Assembly (NCBI GenBank): GCA_964344235.1
Contig: CAYFMJ010000002.1
Location: 1 to 64,000 of the forward strand
DNA: 64,000 nucleotides
Direction of reading: 5' to 3'
DNA from: an uncultured Methanosarcinales archaeon
GTDB taxonomy: Archaea; Nanobdellota; Nanobdellia; Woesearchaeales; GW2011-AR9
The notes below the pieces were generated by a model, which ran no database searches, was not told where the DNA came from, and saw only the letters and a program-made list of their open reading frames with translations. Shown here one piece after another: positions 46,283 to 52,247 of this stretch (its first letter is position 1; each line of letters begins with the position of its first letter). The position numbers and the translations under genes were made by a program.

Positions 46283-46334
46283 AGTCCTCTTTTTCCTACA
46301 TTAAAGAAGTCCTTTTTTGATTTATATACTTTCC

Positions 46335-46343
46335 TATAATTCC
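46335..46343. repeat. Left target-site duplication TATAATTCC
   Basis: Identical 9-mer at 52187-52195; each copy directly abuts a terminal inverted repeat. Confidence 0.9.
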
Positions 46344-46356
46344 GGCTTTGCACAAA
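46344..46356 (+). repeat. Left terminal inverted repeat GGCTTTGCACAAA
   Basis: Reverse complement of 52174-52186. Confidence 0.9.
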
Positions 46357-46402
46357 CGCTTAGTTCTGCACAAAGAGATTGCATTTTGCACAAACAATAT
46401 CT

Positions 46403-46422
46403 CCCCAAATTAGGGGTTTTTT
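46403..46422 (+). terminator. Possible terminator inside the left end
   Basis: CCCC-AAATTA-GGGG followed by TTTTTT; short stem. Confidence 0.3.
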
Positions 46423-46488
46423 GGGTGTTTAGTTAACTATGTGTTCCACACAAGAAGTTTTTAAATAATATCAGCCGTAAGATACGTC

Positions 46489-46902
46489 ATGGTTAAAATT
46501 AGGGGGTCAGAGGCTATTAGGAGAATCCGCCAAATACAAAAGAACATTGAAGAGCAGAATAGAAAAGACATAGATGATGAATTAGAACTGCTTGGTCTGA
46601 ACAGAAATGATCCTGACCTAAAAAAAATCGTAGAGAAAATCATTGAGAAAACAGAATCAGAAAGGGCCCTTTTGAAAATACTTAACAAACGTTTTGAGAC
46701 GAATAAAGCAGTCAATATCAAAAGAACATTTGAGATCATAGATCGGATTAGATCTAAGAAAAATTTCTACGTCAATTTAGCATATATCAGGAAACAAGAA
46801 AAAATAAACGGGAGGCTATTACGCCTGAACCGAGATACAATCCGCTTGACTATTTTGGTTTTGTTGTTGATGGCAGTTCAGATATTCTTAATGGTTCGTT
46901 GA
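46489..46902 (+). CDS. Hypothetical helical protein (transposon cargo)
   Basis: 137-aa ORF with a hydrophobic C-terminus, convergent with the nuclease gene. Confidence 0.55.
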   Translation: MVKIRGSEAIRRIRQIQKNIEEQNRKDIDDELELLGLNRNDPDLKKIVEKIIEKTESERALLKILNKRFETNKAVNIKRTFEIIDRIRSKKNFYVNLAYIRKQEKINGRLLRLNRDTIRLTILVLLLMAVQIFLMVR

Positions 46903-47551
46903 CTCTTACCCATTTACAAAACCCGCACTCTTCAGAGCTCTCTGGCAAACTGCCTTCAAGAACCGCTATCGCCTCTTTGAAGATTTTCTTAGCGTTGTTA
47001 ACATTAACTTTCATTTTTATTAGTTCTGCGTGAAAGTCAACATCGCCATTCTCGTGAACTTTATTTGGATGGTAGAAGAGCAGGTAAGCGTAATCTTCGG
47101 TTTTGTAATCATTTAACTGCAGTAGGTGGTTGTAAATGTCTAACTGATTCTGGTAATGGTCTGCTGTATCCTCTTTTAATGGGTATCCTCTAGTTTTGTA
47201 ATCTAAAACGATGAGTTTGTTGCCTTTCTTTAGAATGTTGTCTACGGCTCCACGAAAGAGGTTTCCTTCTTTGTCCGTCCACTGAATACCTTTGAAATTG
47301 TTTCTCCAAATTGTAAGTAACTCTTCATCATCAAAGAGTTTTACTTCACCATTGAGTTTCTCTAATTCTGGAGGGAGTGTTTCCAACTTCATAAACTTAT
47401 CAAAGTGGTTTTTTAAGATTCTATCTATTCCAGAAGGTAAACTTGGAAAGATTCCGTTAGGCCTACGCAACTTTTTATTATGGTGTAGCCAGAAACAACG
47501 TGGACATTCTTTTAGAAGGCTTAGTGCTGAAGGGGAGAGTTTGTATGCCAT
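46850..47551 (-). CDS. PD-(D/E)XK nuclease (RecB/Cas4-like)
   Basis: LSPSAL...CPRCFW, GAVDN, VLDYKT, QLDIY, CGFC. Confidence 0.88.
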   Translation of the reverse strand: MAYKLSPSALSLLKECPRCFWLHHNKKLRRPNGIFPSLPSGIDRILKNHFDKFMKLETLPPELEKLNGEVKLFDDEELLTIWRNNFKGIQWTDKEGNLFRGAVDNILKKGNKLIVLDYKTRGYPLKEDTADHYQNQLDIYNHLLQLNDYKTEDYAYLLFYHPNKVHENGDVDFHAELIKMKVNVNNAKKIFKEAIAVLEGSLPESSEECGFCKWVRVNEPLRISELPSTTKPK

Positions 47552-47552
47552 T

Positions 47553-48497
47553 TTAGTTTAGGGATTTTGAATAAGGTAATGATTTAATATAATTCCTCAT
47601 AAAAATCCAATCTGGCCTGCCATCTTTATCGACAGGCAACATTATTTTACTCTTTGACATCCTATCAAATCTCCATTTACGGCCGTAATTAAACCGATAT
47701 TTTTCTTTACCAATTAAAGGGATTAAGAACATCGAGATATATACATCTAGATGCCCATCTTTGATTCTTAAAATGTTTACATCATGAGAACAAGTAAATT
47801 CTTCTGGTTGATAGAATGCAGCACCAGCATGGCCATTGTTAACTACTGTTAAACAATTCCCCTTGAAGACTTTTTCTACAATCGATTTGTCAAGATAATC
47901 TGTAACGCCATTGTTATAAACGGATGCTGAGATGAATTTCAATTCCCCCTCCTTAGTTGGCCTTTTATTATAAAATCCTCTTTCAATTGCGAATACCTCA
48001 CCATACAAGAAATACTTCCACTTTCTACTTGATAAATTTGTTTTTTCGTTTAATAACCTTGCATTAAGATTCCTTCGGACAAATTTTTTCTTTTTATAGA
48101 CCCACGAGGGCATATTAATCTCAACCAATGTTCTCCCAAGCCTACTAGGTGTAACCTTTCTACCATAGCTATATCTAAAAACTTCCCTTCTTATTAAAAG
48201 GACAAAATACATCATCTCCTCCCTTGAAAATTTCCTTTTTGGTGAAAGAACAATGCTATCACTATTTATACAACAACCCCTCTCTTGTAAGAATGCATAA
48301 CAAACCGTTCCAGTCCTGGGTACATTAATGACATTTCTATAGGTTGGTTCAATATCTACATAACCCACAACTCCATTATCGGTTCCTTTTGATGAGATAA
48401 GTGGAGTTTTCCCTCTATCAACAGTATCTCTTACTAAGAGGTTGTCTTTTCCATACTCCATATCAAACAATTCACGTAGTTCAATCAACTTCCTCAC
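47553..48497 (-). CDS. Restriction-modification specificity (S) subunit, two TRDs
   Basis: Two repeated halves (LF....G...P.IS....NGV..Y.D...YGRK). Confidence 0.85.
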   Translation of the reverse strand: MRKLIELRELFDMEYGKDNLLVRDTVDRGKTPLISSKGTDNGVVGYVDIEPTYRNVINVPRTGTVCYAFLQERGCCINSDSIVLSPKRKFSREEMMYFVLLIRREVFRYSYGRKVTPSRLGRTLVEINMPSWVYKKKKFVRRNLNARLLNEKTNLSSRKWKYFLYGEVFAIERGFYNKRPTKEGELKFISASVYNNGVTDYLDKSIVEKVFKGNCLTVVNNGHAGAAFYQPEEFTCSHDVNILRIKDGHLDVYISMFLIPLIGKEKYRFNYGRKWRFDRMSKSKIMLPVDKDGRPDWIFMRNYIKSLPYSKSLN

Positions 48498-50364
48498 CCA
48501 ATTCTTTGAATAACAAATATTTTTTCATCTCTCTCTCAAAATCACTTATCTTAATTGATGAGAAATCTGATTCTAAATACGCTTCTGGAACTAATTCCAA
48601 TAACTCGTCATCTGGGTCTAATTCTGTGGAAATTTTAAATTCTGGGACTGCCTTAACTTGATGATTATTGTTGGACATAAAGGCTTTTAATTCATCTTTA
48701 ATCTCAAGAAGCCTATTACTTTCTTGTTTGTCAAAAATTCTTTTCCCCTTTCTTTTTATGAAACCATCTGTATTAGCCTTTGCAAAATAAACCTTCTGGT
48801 TTATAAAATCATGAGGTACACCTTTTTTTATAAACATCCCAACAGTATGGACACCAACAGGGTAAAATAACTCCTCTGGGAGAGTCAATACACTTACAAG
48901 GGAGTTTTTTCTTAATAATTCTCTCCTCCATTGCTTACCACCAGACTCAATAAGGACGGATATTGGAACAATTGCAAAAAGATGCCCACCGTCTTGCATT
49001 TGCTCAAGCGCATAGTCTATGAAATGACTCTCTTTTTCATCAGATTTTTTTAATGCAAACGGGGGATTCATAAGAACTTTAGTTATGATGGGACTTTCAT
49101 TTTTATTTCCCTCCCTTCTTTTAAATTCTCCTGTTGGAAAACCTTTCTTTTGAGTGTATACTATATTCTTCTGAAAGCAATTCCCTTCACTGATATTGTT
49201 TTTTCCATCCCCTCGAAAAATCATATTAACTAGCGATAGTGAAACCACTTCATCATCTTGTTCTATTCCAAAAACATTATAATTTTTGAATTTGTCTAGC
49301 TGTTTATCATTGCTAGAGTTTTTCACATAATCAAAAGCAGACACTAAAAAACCACCTGTTCCACAGGTTGGGTCAAAAACATAATCATTGTGTTTTATAT
49401 CAAGGACATCCACCGCAAATTTGGTTATATGTCTTGGGGTAAGGACTATGCCAATCTCTTTTGCACCATTACCATATTTTAAAAATTTTTCATAAAACTT
49501 TCCGAGGACATCATTACCAGATGCCATAGCATTCTTTATATCCAAGGTCTGGAGTTCTTTTAGTGTGTTTATTATTGCTCTTCTATACTTAATATGGTTC
49601 TCTTTGCTTGGAGGCACTTCTAGTTTTATAAAATCAAAAAAACTTTCTTTATTTACTTCCTCTAACTTTGTTTTAATGAGATTATTGATATTATCAACAA
49701 GAAGTTTTGTTTTAGATGTCCTTAAACTTATCTCTTCATTTAGAGACAAAGATAAAACAAGCCCAGCTATAAACCTCGCTCTTTTATTTTTGTTTATCCC
49801 TGCGTTGTGTAATATCTCATTTATTCTCTCAGCTGATGCCAAGTATTTTTCTTCAGGAAAATCAGGAAATTCTTTCCAATTAGGTGTTTTATTTGATAGT
49901 AAGTATTCTGCTTGCTCCCTTGATAATAATGTATCTTTTGGTTTTCCATTGAATAACACTGTTTCCCATTTGCCATCGTGAAGGAATTGGTTGATTATTG
50001 TATAACCATCAGTGTCATTTCCAGCTAACCCTGTTATTATCAGGCATTTAATTTTCTTACTTTTATTTATCTTCTTGGCATATTGGTTTTTTGCTTCATC
50101 CAATGCTTCATTAATATCCTTTTTGTCCCTTTTGCTCTCTATTACCCAATATTCAGAATCATTCAAACACACAACGGCTTCAGGCATATCTCTACCTAGA
50201 ACTTGTTTAATATTTTCATTGTACAAACATTCGTTCTGTTTGTAAACCTCTCCCTCTGGGACCCTGGCAGGATTTTTTACTACCCAACCTAATTCTTCTA
50301 ACTCCTCTTTAATATAAGCATATGCATCAACCTCTGAATTTTTAGGTTTTTTTGAATGAACCAT
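48481..50364 (-). CDS. N6-adenine methyltransferase with N-terminal endonuclease-like domain (BcgI A-like, Type IIB/IIG)
   Basis: PEA..-VIESKR nuclease-like motif; LTPRHI, FDPTCGTGGFL (SAM binding), VLMNPPF (catalytic). Confidence 0.9.
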   Translation of the reverse strand: MVHSKKPKNSEVDAYAYIKEELEELGWVVKNPARVPEGEVYKQNECLYNENIKQVLGRDMPEAVVCLNDSEYWVIESKRDKKDINEALDEAKNQYAKKINKSKKIKCLIITGLAGNDTDGYTIINQFLHDGKWETVLFNGKPKDTLLSREQAEYLLSNKTPNWKEFPDFPEEKYLASAERINEILHNAGINKNKRARFIAGLVLSLSLNEEISLRTSKTKLLVDNINNLIKTKLEEVNKESFFDFIKLEVPPSKENHIKYRRAIINTLKELQTLDIKNAMASGNDVLGKFYEKFLKYGNGAKEIGIVLTPRHITKFAVDVLDIKHNDYVFDPTCGTGGFLVSAFDYVKNSSNDKQLDKFKNYNVFGIEQDDEVVSLSLVNMIFRGDGKNNISEGNCFQKNIVYTQKKGFPTGEFKRREGNKNESPIITKVLMNPPFALKKSDEKESHFIDYALEQMQDGGHLFAIVPISVLIESGGKQWRRELLRKNSLVSVLTLPEELFYPVGVHTVGMFIKKGVPHDFINQKVYFAKANTDGFIKRKGKRIFDKQESNRLLEIKDELKAFMSNNNHQVKAVPEFKISTELDPDDELLELVPEAYLESDFSSIKISDFEREMKKYLLFKELGEEVD

Positions 50365-50487
50365 CTATCTTTTCCTCTTTTTTGTTTTCTTTTTTGGAGC
50401 AGAGAATATTTTGGCATAGTTAAGGCTCCACTTAACTGATTTGCCTCTAGGCTTACTTCTTGTTTTTGTAGCTTTCTTCTTCACCAT
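50365..50487 (-). CDS. 40-aa basic microprotein translationally coupled to the methyltransferase
   Basis: MVKKKATKTRSKPRGKSVKWSLNYAKIFSAPKKKTKKRKR; TAG directly adjacent to the MTase ATG. Confidence 0.45.
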   Translation of the reverse strand: MVKKKATKTRSKPRGKSVKWSLNYAKIFSAPKKKTKKRKR

Positions 50488-50656
50488 GTTTAATCAAAAT
50501 CTCTTCTTTGTATAATTTATCAAGATACTTTTTAACTGTTACATAACTTATTCCAGTATACTTAGATATTTCATGAGCAGTCATAAAACCGCCGTGTTTA
50601 TGAATCGCCCTGATTATTTCTCTCTCTTTATCTTTAAGTATCGGTTTGCTCGTCAT
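50453..50656 (-). CDS. Small HTH DNA-binding protein
   Basis: MTAHEISKYTGISYVTVKKYLDKL. Confidence 0.8.
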   Translation of the reverse strand: MTSKPILKDKEREIIRAIHKHGGFMTAHEISKYTGISYVTVKKYLDKLYKEEILIKHGEEESYKNKK

Positions 50657-50885
50657 CTACCACCTCAGCGAAAAGACGAGGAACCATCTCGCCATGCTCA
50701 CTTTTGTCTAACTCAACTCTAAATCGCATTATTTCATCGCCAGTTAGTCTTGCTCGTTCGGCGATCCTTTTTGGGATTTTAACCGAGAACTGCCCCGTGT
50801 TTTTGTGAAGCGTAACTTTTGCAGTCAACTCAGAACCTTGTTCTCCTTCGATTATTTCTCTAACTTCTTCGATTACCTTTCTCAT
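50634..50885 (-). CDS. AbrB/MazE-like DNA-binding protein
   Basis: GQFSVKIPKRIAERARLTGDE.MRF. Confidence 0.7.
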   Translation of the reverse strand: MRKVIEEVREIIEGEQGSELTAKVTLHKNTGQFSVKIPKRIAERARLTGDEIMRFRVELDKSEHGEMVPRLFAEVVDDEQTDT

Positions 50886-51103
50886 TGGAACTAAATATTA
50901 ATCTTTATTTCATAATAAATAGTCTATTGATTTATATAATTATCGTTATTTTCATCATAATTAGACTAATTATTGGTAATTTTTAGAAAGTTTTAAATAA
51001 AAGTGACAATAAATAGACTAAATATTGTAAAATGAAACTTGCGAGGTTGATATTATGGATGTTGTTACTGCTACTGCACGCACGGTTAGCTGGAGGATGA
51101 TGT

Positions 51104-52165
51104 GTGTTACAAAAGAGAAAAACCGAGATGTGGAAAAGAGGTCGTTTAGGAGAACGACAAATGGAACTACGGGAATTCAACAAGAAAGTCAAACAGCTCA
51201 CCTACCCTCAAAATTGGGAAGCATACAATCGAGCCAAAACGCAGGAGAAAATCCTCGCTGAACGATTACTCTCAGAATTGCTAGAAGCGACAGCTAACAT
51301 CAAGCCAGCAAGAAAAGGCGACCAGTACGCTTCTGTGAAAGATAAAATATTCTGTATGTTCGTTTACAACTTTTCTGGACTTAGCTCAAGACGTTGTATG
51401 TCTGATGTTAAGATCGCCCACCAGAGGGGTTTAATCGCAAGGACACCACACTTTAACTCAATCTTGAACTATTTTGCCGATCCCAACACAACTCCCATTA
51501 TCAAGAAGTTAATCACTCTCACGGCGTTGCCATTACGAAACGTGGAGAAAGACTTCGCTGTTGACTCTTCGGGTTTCTCAACATCTCTCTTCGACAGATG
51601 GGTAGATTACAGGACGCAGAAAGTAACAAGAAGAAGACATTGGAAGAAATGCCACATCACAGTCGGAGTTAAGAGTAATGTGATCACTGCTGTAAAAATA
51701 ACATCTGGCAGTTCCCCTGACTGTTCAGAATTCATAGAACTGGTAAGGGAAACGAGGGGGTTCTTTGACGTTGAAGAAGTTTCGGCGGACAAAGCATATT
51801 CAAGTAAATCAAATCTCGAAGCGGTCTCCCAACTTGGAGCGATTCCGTATGTGCCTTTCAAGAAAAACACAACAGGAAAAGCAAGAGGTTCTTACACATG
51901 GAGTCGAATGTATGATTACTTCCTTAACAACAGAGAACGATTCGATCAATCATATCACAAACGGTCAAACGTTGAAACAGCTTTCCACATGATCAAGCGG
52001 AAGTTTGGAAATAATCTCAGAACAAAGAAAGATATTTCTCATGTCAATGAAATTTTGATGAAGTGCTTGTGCCACAATCTTTCGGTTTTGGTTCAGGAGT
52101 CGTTTGAACTTGGGCTAGAAATTGATTTTTCTCATTGTGCAGAAATCTATGCTGCACAGACGTAG
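51104..52165 (+). CDS. DDE transposase, IS5 family (IS903-like)
   Basis: AVDSSG (D), WKKCHITV, ADKAYSS (D), YHKRSNVETAFHMIK = Y-x2-R-x3-E-x6-K. Exact start uncertain. Confidence 0.92.
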   Translation: MLQKRKTEMWKRGRLGERQMELREFNKKVKQLTYPQNWEAYNRAKTQEKILAERLLSELLEATANIKPARKGDQYASVKDKIFCMFVYNFSGLSSRRCMSDVKIAHQRGLIARTPHFNSILNYFADPNTTPIIKKLITLTALPLRNVEKDFAVDSSGFSTSLFDRWVDYRTQKVTRRRHWKKCHITVGVKSNVITAVKITSGSSPDCSEFIELVRETRGFFDVEEVSADKAYSSKSNLEAVSQLGAIPYVPFKKNTTGKARGSYTWSRMYDYFLNNRERFDQSYHKRSNVETAFHMIKRKFGNNLRTKKDISHVNEILMKCLCHNLSVLVQESFELGLEIDFSHCAEIYAAQT

Positions 52166-52173
52166 GGTTATCA

Positions 52174-52186
52174 TTTGTGCAAAGCC
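52174..52186 (-). repeat. Right terminal inverted repeat (TTTGTGCAAAGCC on +)
   Basis: Perfect reverse complement of 46344-46356, 9 nt after the transposase stop. Confidence 0.9.
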
Positions 52187-52195
52187 TATAATTCC
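52187..52195. repeat. Right target-site duplication TATAATTCC
   Basis: Identical to 46335-46343. Confidence 0.9.
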
Positions 52196-52247
52196 CTTTC
52201 CTCATGTAGTCGTAATCTTTATATAACTCTCTGCAATCCTGCCTTCC

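Follow-up and report, generated by a model that had tools for sequence, protein, structure and literature searches.

How does a whole restriction-modification (R-M) system come to lie between the divergent promoters of two cellular genes in an archaeal genome of 1.19 Mb, and what carried it there? The question is raised by a 64,000-nucleotide stretch of DNA (the window: positions 1 to 64,000 of contig CAYFMJ010000002.1, assembly GCA_964344235.1), deposited as an uncultured Methanosarcinales archaeon and placed by GTDB in the Woesearchaeales (GW2011-AR9), in which R-M genes and a transposase gene stand together beside serS. Positions 46344-52186 of the window are one 5,843-bp unit with perfect 13-bp inverted ends, each abutted by an identical 9-bp duplication. 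Taken as a whole, this unit is very probably one autonomous unit transposon with a promoter-edge target and an R-M cargo. What the analysis adds to an initial annotation made from the sequence of the window is a set of family-wide rules: obligate cargo, a bias towards R-M genes, covarying multi-repeat ends and insertion at the edge of a B recognition element (BRE) and TATA box.

Boundaries and integrity of a single insertion

Read directly from the sequence, the left junction runs ...TTTCC TATAATTCC GGCTTTGCACAAA... and the right junction ...TTTGTGCAAAGCC TATAATTCC CTTTCC..., the right inverted repeat (IR) being the reverse complement of GGCTTTGCACAAA. A scanner for terminal inverted repeats (TIRs) with target-site duplications (TSDs), run around the transposase gene, recovers the pair at 46344 and 52186 and no other. 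By our own arithmetic, a perfect 13-bp inverted pair with an abutting perfect 9-bp direct pair within 10 kb is expected by chance about 4e-5 times per window. With up to 2 mismatches allowed, the terminal 13-mer is confined to the two element ends within the window, and no internal end-like sequence was found inside the element; the 1.19-Mb, 37-contig genome holds no further exact copy, and 1-mismatch matches occur at the control rate. Solo ends, miniature transposable elements with inverted repeats (MITEs) and second copies of the element were likewise not seen in this genome, and the single DDE_Tnp_1 gene of the element is also the sole one in the genome. Passenger genes and one transposase gene are therefore enclosed by a single pair of inverted repeats with no flanking insertion sequence (IS) copies, the arrangement of a transporter IS or unit transposon. 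These results bear out the initial proposal of a single, non-composite inserted piece with perfect ends, and also its description of the cargo as AT-rich: GC content is 0.31-0.36 across the cargo (47400-51200), whereas the flanks have 0.38-0.43 and the transposase gene 0.40-0.44. A composite transposon was rejected on the single transposase gene and the absence of bracketing IS copies and internal ends, and a Tn7-like transposon was rejected since TnsA, TnsB and TnsC domains are absent from every open reading frame (ORF) of the element.

The possibility that a metagenome assembler had misjoined a 5.8-kb block into the serS locus, which the initial annotation had raised, draws some credit from the nature of the genome (a 37-contig metagenome-assembled genome, MAG) and from the difference in GC content between cargo and flanks, but we give it a negligible probability. 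Separate assembly of four runs from a single project (PRJEB17505; ERR2281800, -01, -02 and -04) gave five contigs that match the window at 100% identity; both junctions are crossed by two of them, the right junction by two more, and the shortest extends into the transposase gene. The sequence is thus reproduced by four independent assemblies, and a misjoin would not make a 9-bp duplication abutting perfect inverted repeats. One assembly contig (L025) ends at window position 48416, about 80 nt inside the 5' end of the specificity (S) gene of the cargo and near its overlap with the restriction-modification (RM) fusion gene; its sequence is identical to the window, and thin coverage or strain differences in the specificity gene could account for the break.

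The source genus holds no other genome. At family level, 8 of 11 relatives have a homologue of the gene to the left of the element, which encodes a 480-aa protein, immediately beside serS and divergent from it; in L020 and L021, where the alignment covers the full N-terminus, about 130 nt separate the two genes. Because the flanking genes adjoin one another in these relatives, the 5.8 kb is an insertion into a conserved divergent promoter region, and the cargo does not derive from the serS locus. According to the initial annotation, relatives with the cargo at this locus and no TIR or TSD would speak against a single unit; the opposite was found, with the flanking genes adjacent and no cargo between them. 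The insertion lies between the two divergent promoters, as first described, with no gene disrupted and both core promoters intact.

Two observations weigh against present-day activity. No same-species empty site was found, every contig that encodes an identical serS carrying either the insertion or its transposase end, and neither an excised form nor a second copy was seen in four samples. All four samples that hold the organism carry the insertion, so the single-copy element is fixed there, and the perfect TSD is the sole basis for calling the insertion recent. The unit could on these grounds be an immobile relic that was inserted whole, is now inactive and is retained because the R-M system is useful or addictive, its perfect ends reflecting a short elapsed time. 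We consider such a relic unlikely. Its single copy, the lack of solo ends and MITEs and the shared site in all four samples would fit, but the transposase ORF is unbroken and keeps every catalytic and family-invariant residue, the TIR (13/13) and TSD (9/9) are perfect, the subterminal repeats are undamaged, and in a 1.2-Mb genome even an active element would be expected as a single copy. The transposon may still be mobile.

Transposase, ends and family

On sequence grounds, the transposase is a distant relative of the IS903 group. It matches DDE_Tnp_1 (PF01609, 6.3e-21), and in an alignment of 21 homologues D154, D229 and E291 are invariant, as are Y284-R287-E291-K298, and WKKCH is conserved too; the protein thus has the D-D-E residues and the Y-(2)-R-(3)-E-(6)-K signature of IS5/IS903 catalysis, and the initial call of an intact IS903-like transposase stands. 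Homologues with 81% identity align over 98-99% of the 353-aa length, supporting the extent predicted from the GTG start. Distance from IS903 itself tells against carrying the likeness too far. The NCBIfam IS5 model NF033579 scores 126.6 bits, under its 140 cut-off, and the closest classified elements in a tblastn search of 72,556 plasmids (ISAte1, ISAba13, ISVa2 and IS17) match at 24-29% identity over 40-69% of the query, in its catalytic half, with E values of 1e-8 to 1e-5. At such identities and with a score under the cut-off, transposition chemistry borrowed from IS903 is an extrapolation. The plasmid copies examined for an IS903 end belong to an armA-linked IS5-family element with a GGCGTTGTTGACCAAATC end, not to IS903 itself.

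Homologues of the transposase are abundant in DPANN archaea. From species-representative genomes and Joint Genome Institute (JGI) metagenomes we drew 160 loci with related transposases and scanned each for a right end at most 250 nt from the transposase stop, a matching left end at most 10.5 kb upstream and an abutting 9-bp duplication. The initial annotation had proposed searching assemblies for elements with these ends and cataloguing their cargo; the scan yielded 32 further elements with GGCTTTG-type ends and a 9-bp duplication, perfect in 31 and with one mismatch in L031. They measure 2,885 to 10,154 bp, none of them the size of a plain IS, and among the 100 loci with a recognisable right end there was no left-end candidate that would give an element shorter than about 1.7 kb. 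Their archaeal hosts are Woesearchaeota, Pacearchaeota, Nanoarchaeota, Iainarchaeota, Thermoplasmatales and Methanoperedens; on the bacterial side they occur in Dehalococcoidia, Bryobacteraceae and a Dojkabacteria bin. No gene other than the transposase is common to the bounded elements, and it always stands at the right end. In the window element, everything between the left end of about 50 bp and the transposase gene is passenger DNA. In three relatives with 41-43% identity (L003-L005), an inverted-repeat search gave no clear ends.

Alignment of the outermost 56 nt at each end of every element revealed a shared architecture. The family left end consists of terminal GGCTTTGCACAA and two direct TTGCACAAnAA copies at about +23 and +44; at the right end the terminal copy is followed by one in inverted orientation at about +28 and often by a direct one at about +45. 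In the window, TGCACAAA occurs at 46349-46356, 46367-46374 and 46387-46394 of the left end, and the right end has an inverted copy, CTGCACA, at 52152-52158 and a direct copy at 52135-52142, both within the 3' end of the transposase gene. The subterminal copies covary with the terminal motif from element to element (GCACAA, GTTTAA, GCCCGA, GTAGGT, GCCTCA and GCACCA), which is strong evidence that the repeats are transposase-binding sites and gives a natural series of transposase-DNA specificities. The transposase would presumably bind the terminal and two subterminal sites at each end, and the ends would then be joined to target DNA with a 9-bp stagger, producing the TATAATTCC duplication. Between the left-end repeats and the first ORF lies a hairpin with a GC stem, CCCCAAATTAGGGG, followed by a T-run (46403-46428); it may act as a terminator, shielding the element from the promoter next to it.

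The initial annotation had taken the element for a normally cargo-free IS903 element that had captured a cassette. Classical IS903-group elements are about 1 kb long (about 1.05 kb), with a single ORF, one simple IR per end and no cargo; IS903 ends begin GGCTTTG and its target duplication is 9 bp. The window element resembles this group in its DDE_Tnp_1 domain, its D-D-E and Y-(2)-R-(3)-E-(6)-K residues, its GGCTTTG ends and its 9-bp TSD, but it is 5,843 bp long with passenger ORFs, has three repeat copies per end, is found in archaeal hosts and inserts at promoter edges, so that neither the size nor the simple ends of the group are found. A one-off capture, in which an IS903-like IS of about 1.3 kb, its own left end lost or bypassed, once used a fortuitous distal end and dragged the R-M genes along, would agree with the lack of cargo in classical elements and with the single copy in this genome; it is nevertheless very improbable. 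No internal end-like sequence is present, the left end has a three-repeat architecture common to 30 other elements, cargo is present in each of the 32 bounded relatives, not one of which is as small as an IS, and the adjacency of the flanking genes in relatives leaves the serS locus out as a source of the cargo. The capture account therefore gives way to a whole clade that is cargo-bearing, has multi-repeat ends and shares 24-29% identity with the IS903 group.

R-M genes are the prevailing cargo of this clade. Pfam searches of 110 family cargo ORFs (at least 100 aa) gave 8 C5 methylases, 6 D12 methylases, 4 N6_N4 and 3 N6_Mtase proteins, together with Eco57I, MmeI, Vsr, NgoPII, HinP1I, BsaWI and MutH-type proteins, and a methyltransferase motif or R-M genes were present in at least 18 of 31 elements. 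About 40% of the related elements lack a methyltransferase motif, so that R-M carriage is a bias and not a rule. The largest cargo proteins in the motif-free elements sampled include a TrkH transporter, surface proteins with PKD/beta-propeller and C1-peptidase domains, and an ADP-ribosylglycohydrolase; two motif-free elements nevertheless have domains of restriction type, one in a split MmeI/Eco57I-like gene and the other in an HSDR_N protein.

Elements appear to exchange cargo with one another. A Dehalococcoidia locus (L092) encodes homologues of the window RM (L092:6978-9362) and S genes with 44% identity in the same position beside the transposase, the RM homologue also in the same orientation. 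On a metagenome contig, an RM homologue with 42% identity (L149:4-972) likewise has the same place and orientation upstream of a related transposase. The transposases of L092 and L149 are no closer to that of the window than are those with other cargo, and it is from this that exchange is deduced. The best sign of recent transposition in the family is a pair of near-identical elements of about 4.07-4.09 kb in one Dehalococcoidia genome, with different perfect 9-bp duplications on two contigs (L066 and L067). A second Dehalococcoidia genome has a TIR-only candidate of the same length (L071). One 3,271-bp element, with the same duplication CCTGTAATC, was found both on a JGI metagenome contig (L152) and in a Woesearchaeota MAG (L078); its cargo is a 438-aa protein of no clear family.

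The family is large, IS903-related and cargo-bearing throughout its bounded members, and it is apparently undescribed: literature searches found no published description of it or of promoter-edge targeting in archaea. The nearest work (Furuta, Abe and Kobayashi 2010, PMC2853133) describes isolated bacterial R-M units with inverted repeats and 8-bp TSDs, without an active transposase or a family; in one Neisseria unit a IIG RM gene is accompanied by an S homologue and the remnant of a transposase, and no archaeal case survived the screen. Those units and the window element alike hold R-M genes within inverted repeats and a short TSD, but the window element is archaeal, has a 9-bp TSD and an intact transposase and belongs to a family.

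The R-M operon and its nuclease

The element holds up to six passenger ORFs, five of them supported (Table 1). The supported genes form a single leftward operon in which genes abut or overlap, in the order 83 aa, 67 aa, 627 aa, 314 aa and 233 aa. The 627-aa RM fusion has an N-terminal PD-(D/E)XK motif (D69...E76-S-K78) followed by an N6-adenine methyltransferase (FDPTCGTGGF, NPPF); its PADLOC REase_MTase_IIG match covers residues 173-620, and Type I HsdM structures match residues 268-519. The S gene overlaps the RM gene by 17 nt, and the Specificity_II match of its product spans protein residues 8-305 and profile positions 13-325 of 341. With an endonuclease-methyltransferase fusion and a separate S-type subunit, the two form a predicted BcgI-like Type IIB R-M pair. 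BcgI, too, is encoded by two genes, one for a fusion protein of some 630 aa and one for an S-like subunit of some 320-340 aa; unlike BcgI, the window pair is assigned by profile matches, and its operon includes a coupled Cas4-like nuclease gene. The initial claim that the cargo includes a complete R-M cassette is upheld by these matches and motifs. If active, the system should restrict incoming DNA, and it could also stabilise the element through post-segregational killing.

Other parts of the initial gene list fared unevenly. The nuclease, S subunit, RM fusion and helix-turn-helix (HTH) genes are supported, and two ORFs are without search support: a 137-aa ORF with no Pfam, NCBIfam or PADLOC match and no tblastn match in the 160 related loci, and a 40-aa 'basic peptide' (50365-50487) unsupported by any search. 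For the 83-aa protein, listed as AbrB-like, there is no Pfam match even at E values up to 5, a weak Atlas lead to MazE_antitoxin (0.85) and a beta-beta-alpha-beta-beta fold in a poor AlphaFold2 (AF2) model (pLDDT 57); no homology was found between its gene and the 82-87 aa winged-HTH cluster of other elements. Genes of 79-81 aa and an HTH gene occupy the positions of the 83-aa and 67-aa pair beside 81%-identical transposases, and the two small DNA-binding-type proteins are probably regulators.

Table 1 Features of the transposon and of its flanking promoters (window coordinates)
Feature	Position	Strand	Evidence
Promoter of the left 480-aa gene	46321..46334	-	sequence; phasing as in family
Left TSD copy, TATAATTCC	46335..46343		sequence and scanner
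Left end: 13-bp IR GGCTTTGCACAAA (46344-46356) and three direct TGCACAAA copies	46344..46394	+	sequence, end alignment
137-aa ORF, doubtful; overlaps nuclease 3' end on the opposite strand	46489..46902	+	called by metagenome gene callers
Cas4-like PD-(D/E)XK nuclease, 233 aa, last operon gene	46850..47551	-	PF12705 1.2e-12
Specificity (S) subunit, predicted Type IIB, 314 aa	47553..48497	-	PF01420 5e-19, PADLOC Specificity_II 2.9e-26
RM fusion protein, 627 aa	48481..50364	-	PF02384 2.6e-33, PADLOC REase_MTase_IIG 5e-49
67-aa winged-HTH protein, second operon gene	50453..50656	-	HTH_24 6e-5 and many other HTH families
83-aa protein, first operon gene, possibly SpoVT/AbrB-like	50634..50885	-	weak Atlas lead, low-confidence model
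AT-rich divergent control region between cargo operon and transposase gene; TATA-like boxes, short palindromes	50886..51103		sequence; inverted repeat I2, direct repeat D17
DDE transposase, 353 aa from GTG; IS5 family, distantly IS903-like	51104..52165	+	PF01609, NF033579, alignment
Right end: 13-bp IR (52174-52186), inverted and direct subterminal copies	52135..52186	-	sequence, end alignment
Right TSD copy, TATAATTCC	52187..52195		sequence and scanner
serS promoter, TTTATATA at 52218-52225; ATG 52248, leaderless-type spacing	52211..52225	+	sequence

The last operon gene has a distribution of its own. Its start overlaps the S-gene stop, so that the two are translationally coupled, and its product has four cysteines (CxxC near each terminus) and DYK and QxxxY motifs. 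Cas4 models fall under their cut-offs (TIGR00372, 27.6 bits against 65) and no cas genes lie nearby, so the protein is called Cas4-like only. Homologues with 47-62% identity occur in or beside eight related transposase loci; the gene overlaps the transposase stop in L003, where it is translationally coupled, and directly follows the transposase in L054 and L090. These three loci suggested a core transposition protein analogous to TnsA, a role rejected by a census of 201 genomes of the order (including one unpublished genome, G155, on which alone no claim rests): 41 have the nuclease and 20 the transposase, but only 7 have both, and the two genes are adjacent in just 4. Ten other contexts of the nuclease lie after HsdR/HsdM genes or among housekeeping genes, with no transposon ends nearby. 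The gene stands directly beside Type I hsdR or hsdM in 2 of the 10 and is often less than 1 kb from a contig end. Across the order the nuclease is up to 73% identical (G101, G214, G154, G056 and 36 others), exceeding the identity of serS between the same families. It is patchily distributed and highly conserved, and probably a self-standing mobile or defence-linked gene that is often carried by the transposon family.

Insertion at promoter edges

The position of the element relative to the promoters follows a pattern seen across the family. On the minus strand, the promoter of the 480-aa gene reads GGAAAG (BRE-like, 46334-46329) and then a TATA box, TATATAAA (46328-46321); the TSD begins at the next base after 46334, which places the TATA box at offset 6 from the TSD. 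On the other side, the promoter of serS (identified by TIGR00414, 1e-142) is intact, 22 nt beyond the right TSD. An all-A/T 8-mer begins at offset 5-7 outward from the TSD at 24 of 32 sites, compared with 3-6 of 32 at five control offsets, and the peak at offset 6 comprises 13 left and 8 right flanks against about 2 elsewhere. Read outward, the consensus is RAAAMA-TTTWWAWA, a BRE and then a TATA box that point away from the element. As with the majority of archaeal family members, the element landed directly upstream of the BRE/TATA core of an outward promoter, here that of the 480-aa gene divergent from serS, destroying no gene or core promoter. The position between promoters given by the initial annotation is confirmed, and it is not incidental: it fits the rule seen throughout the family, by which insertion takes place about 6 nt upstream of a TATA box.

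Recognition of such sites could act on DNA sequence or shape, or on a promoter bound by TATA-binding protein (TBP) and transcription factor B (TFB). Tentatively, and with a rather low likelihood for the scheme as a whole, we suggest that the transposase, alone or via TBP/TFB, recognises the bent BRE/TATA complex and integrates at its upstream edge, shuttling R-M and other cargo between archaeal phyla and into bacteria. Certain results speak against promoter targeting in general: the bacterial members lie in GC-rich sites without a TATA motif, and the promoter phasing could be a plain preference for an A/T-rich motif. Random promoter targeting, moreover, does not explain a serS neighbourhood in a second host (see below). 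Targeting by sequence only, with a transposase that prefers a short A/T-rich motif or bendable DNA beside the 9-bp target and with TBP/TFB uninvolved, is a plausible alternative to which we give somewhat less than an even chance. A motif at a fixed distance with a purine-rich spacer is directly readable by a DNA-binding protein, the bacterial members (L066, L067, L082 and L079) transpose without archaeal promoters, and some sites (L117, L046, L159 and L156) adjoin the ends of other elements and not promoters; on the other side, most sites have the motif on one flank only, and it always runs BRE-then-TATA outward, the signature of a functional promoter and not of a symmetric target preference, without being decisive. 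Classical IS903 is reported to prefer particular flanking sequence.

Some family members lie next to one another. Just outside the TSD of L117, L046, L159, L156 and L079 is another GGCTTTG-type transposon end, and in L159 and L156 such ends lie on both sides, two ends facing across 9 bp. Family elements thus seem to insert beside or between the ends of resident copies.

The closest relatives of the transposase bring serS back into view. A 5,322-nt contig from an unrelated run (Logan SRR22388301) encodes an 81%-identical transposase (P0004), the same two small divergent genes, and then serS and a Cdc6-like gene. The serS product of this contig (424 aa) falls outside the 120 best matches to the window serS, all of which are at least 67% identical; with its neighbouring serS less than about 67% identical and its transposase 81% identical, the element is more conserved than the host gene. 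The shared serS neighbourhood could reflect independent insertion at a hotspot, or homologous recombination that transferred the element together with its flanks. In the second relative with 81% identity (JGI 3300072015) the two small genes are again present, with no methylase or other R-M domain recorded among the upstream genes. The transposase and two small genes look like the stable core of this sub-lineage.

Among known systems, the described transporter ISs are scattered exceptions within plain-IS families. The window element has their layout (ISfinder, TnCentral), one transposase and its passengers in one IR pair with one TSD, and the initial label of a transporter-IS-type element is apt; the clade differs in that every bounded member carries cargo, with a strong R-M bias. 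The multi-site ends resemble those of Tn7 or Mu, in contrast to the single IR of classical IS903. With Tn7-like transposons that carry defence cargo (Benler et al. 2021, PMC8649781) the element shares multiple transposase-binding repeats (putative here), asymmetric ends, safe-site targeting and a defence-rich cargo, but it uses a single IS5-type DDE gene with no TnsA/TnsB/TnsC or target selector, its TSD is 9 bp as opposed to 5 bp, and its target is a class of sites (promoter edges) and not one attachment site.

R-M systems are known to move between genomes, and the vehicle for most of them is unknown, especially in archaea. The element and its relatives are a defined single-transposase vehicle for whole R-M systems in DPANN, other archaea and several bacterial phyla, and with one protein and ends of about 50 bp, the element would be a candidate genetic tool for archaea. 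Insertion at the BRE/TATA edge would account for the persistence of a 3-10 kb parasite in 1-Mb genomes that have hardly any DNA to spare, and it offers a testable case of promoter-directed integration in archaea. If recognition of the BRE/TATA complex holds true, promoter edges would offer a safe place to insert in gene-dense DPANN genomes, comparable to the use of TFIIIB by yeast Ty3, and the family, with a single IS5-type transposase as its machinery, would be an archaeal equivalent of the Tn7-type carriers of defence genes.

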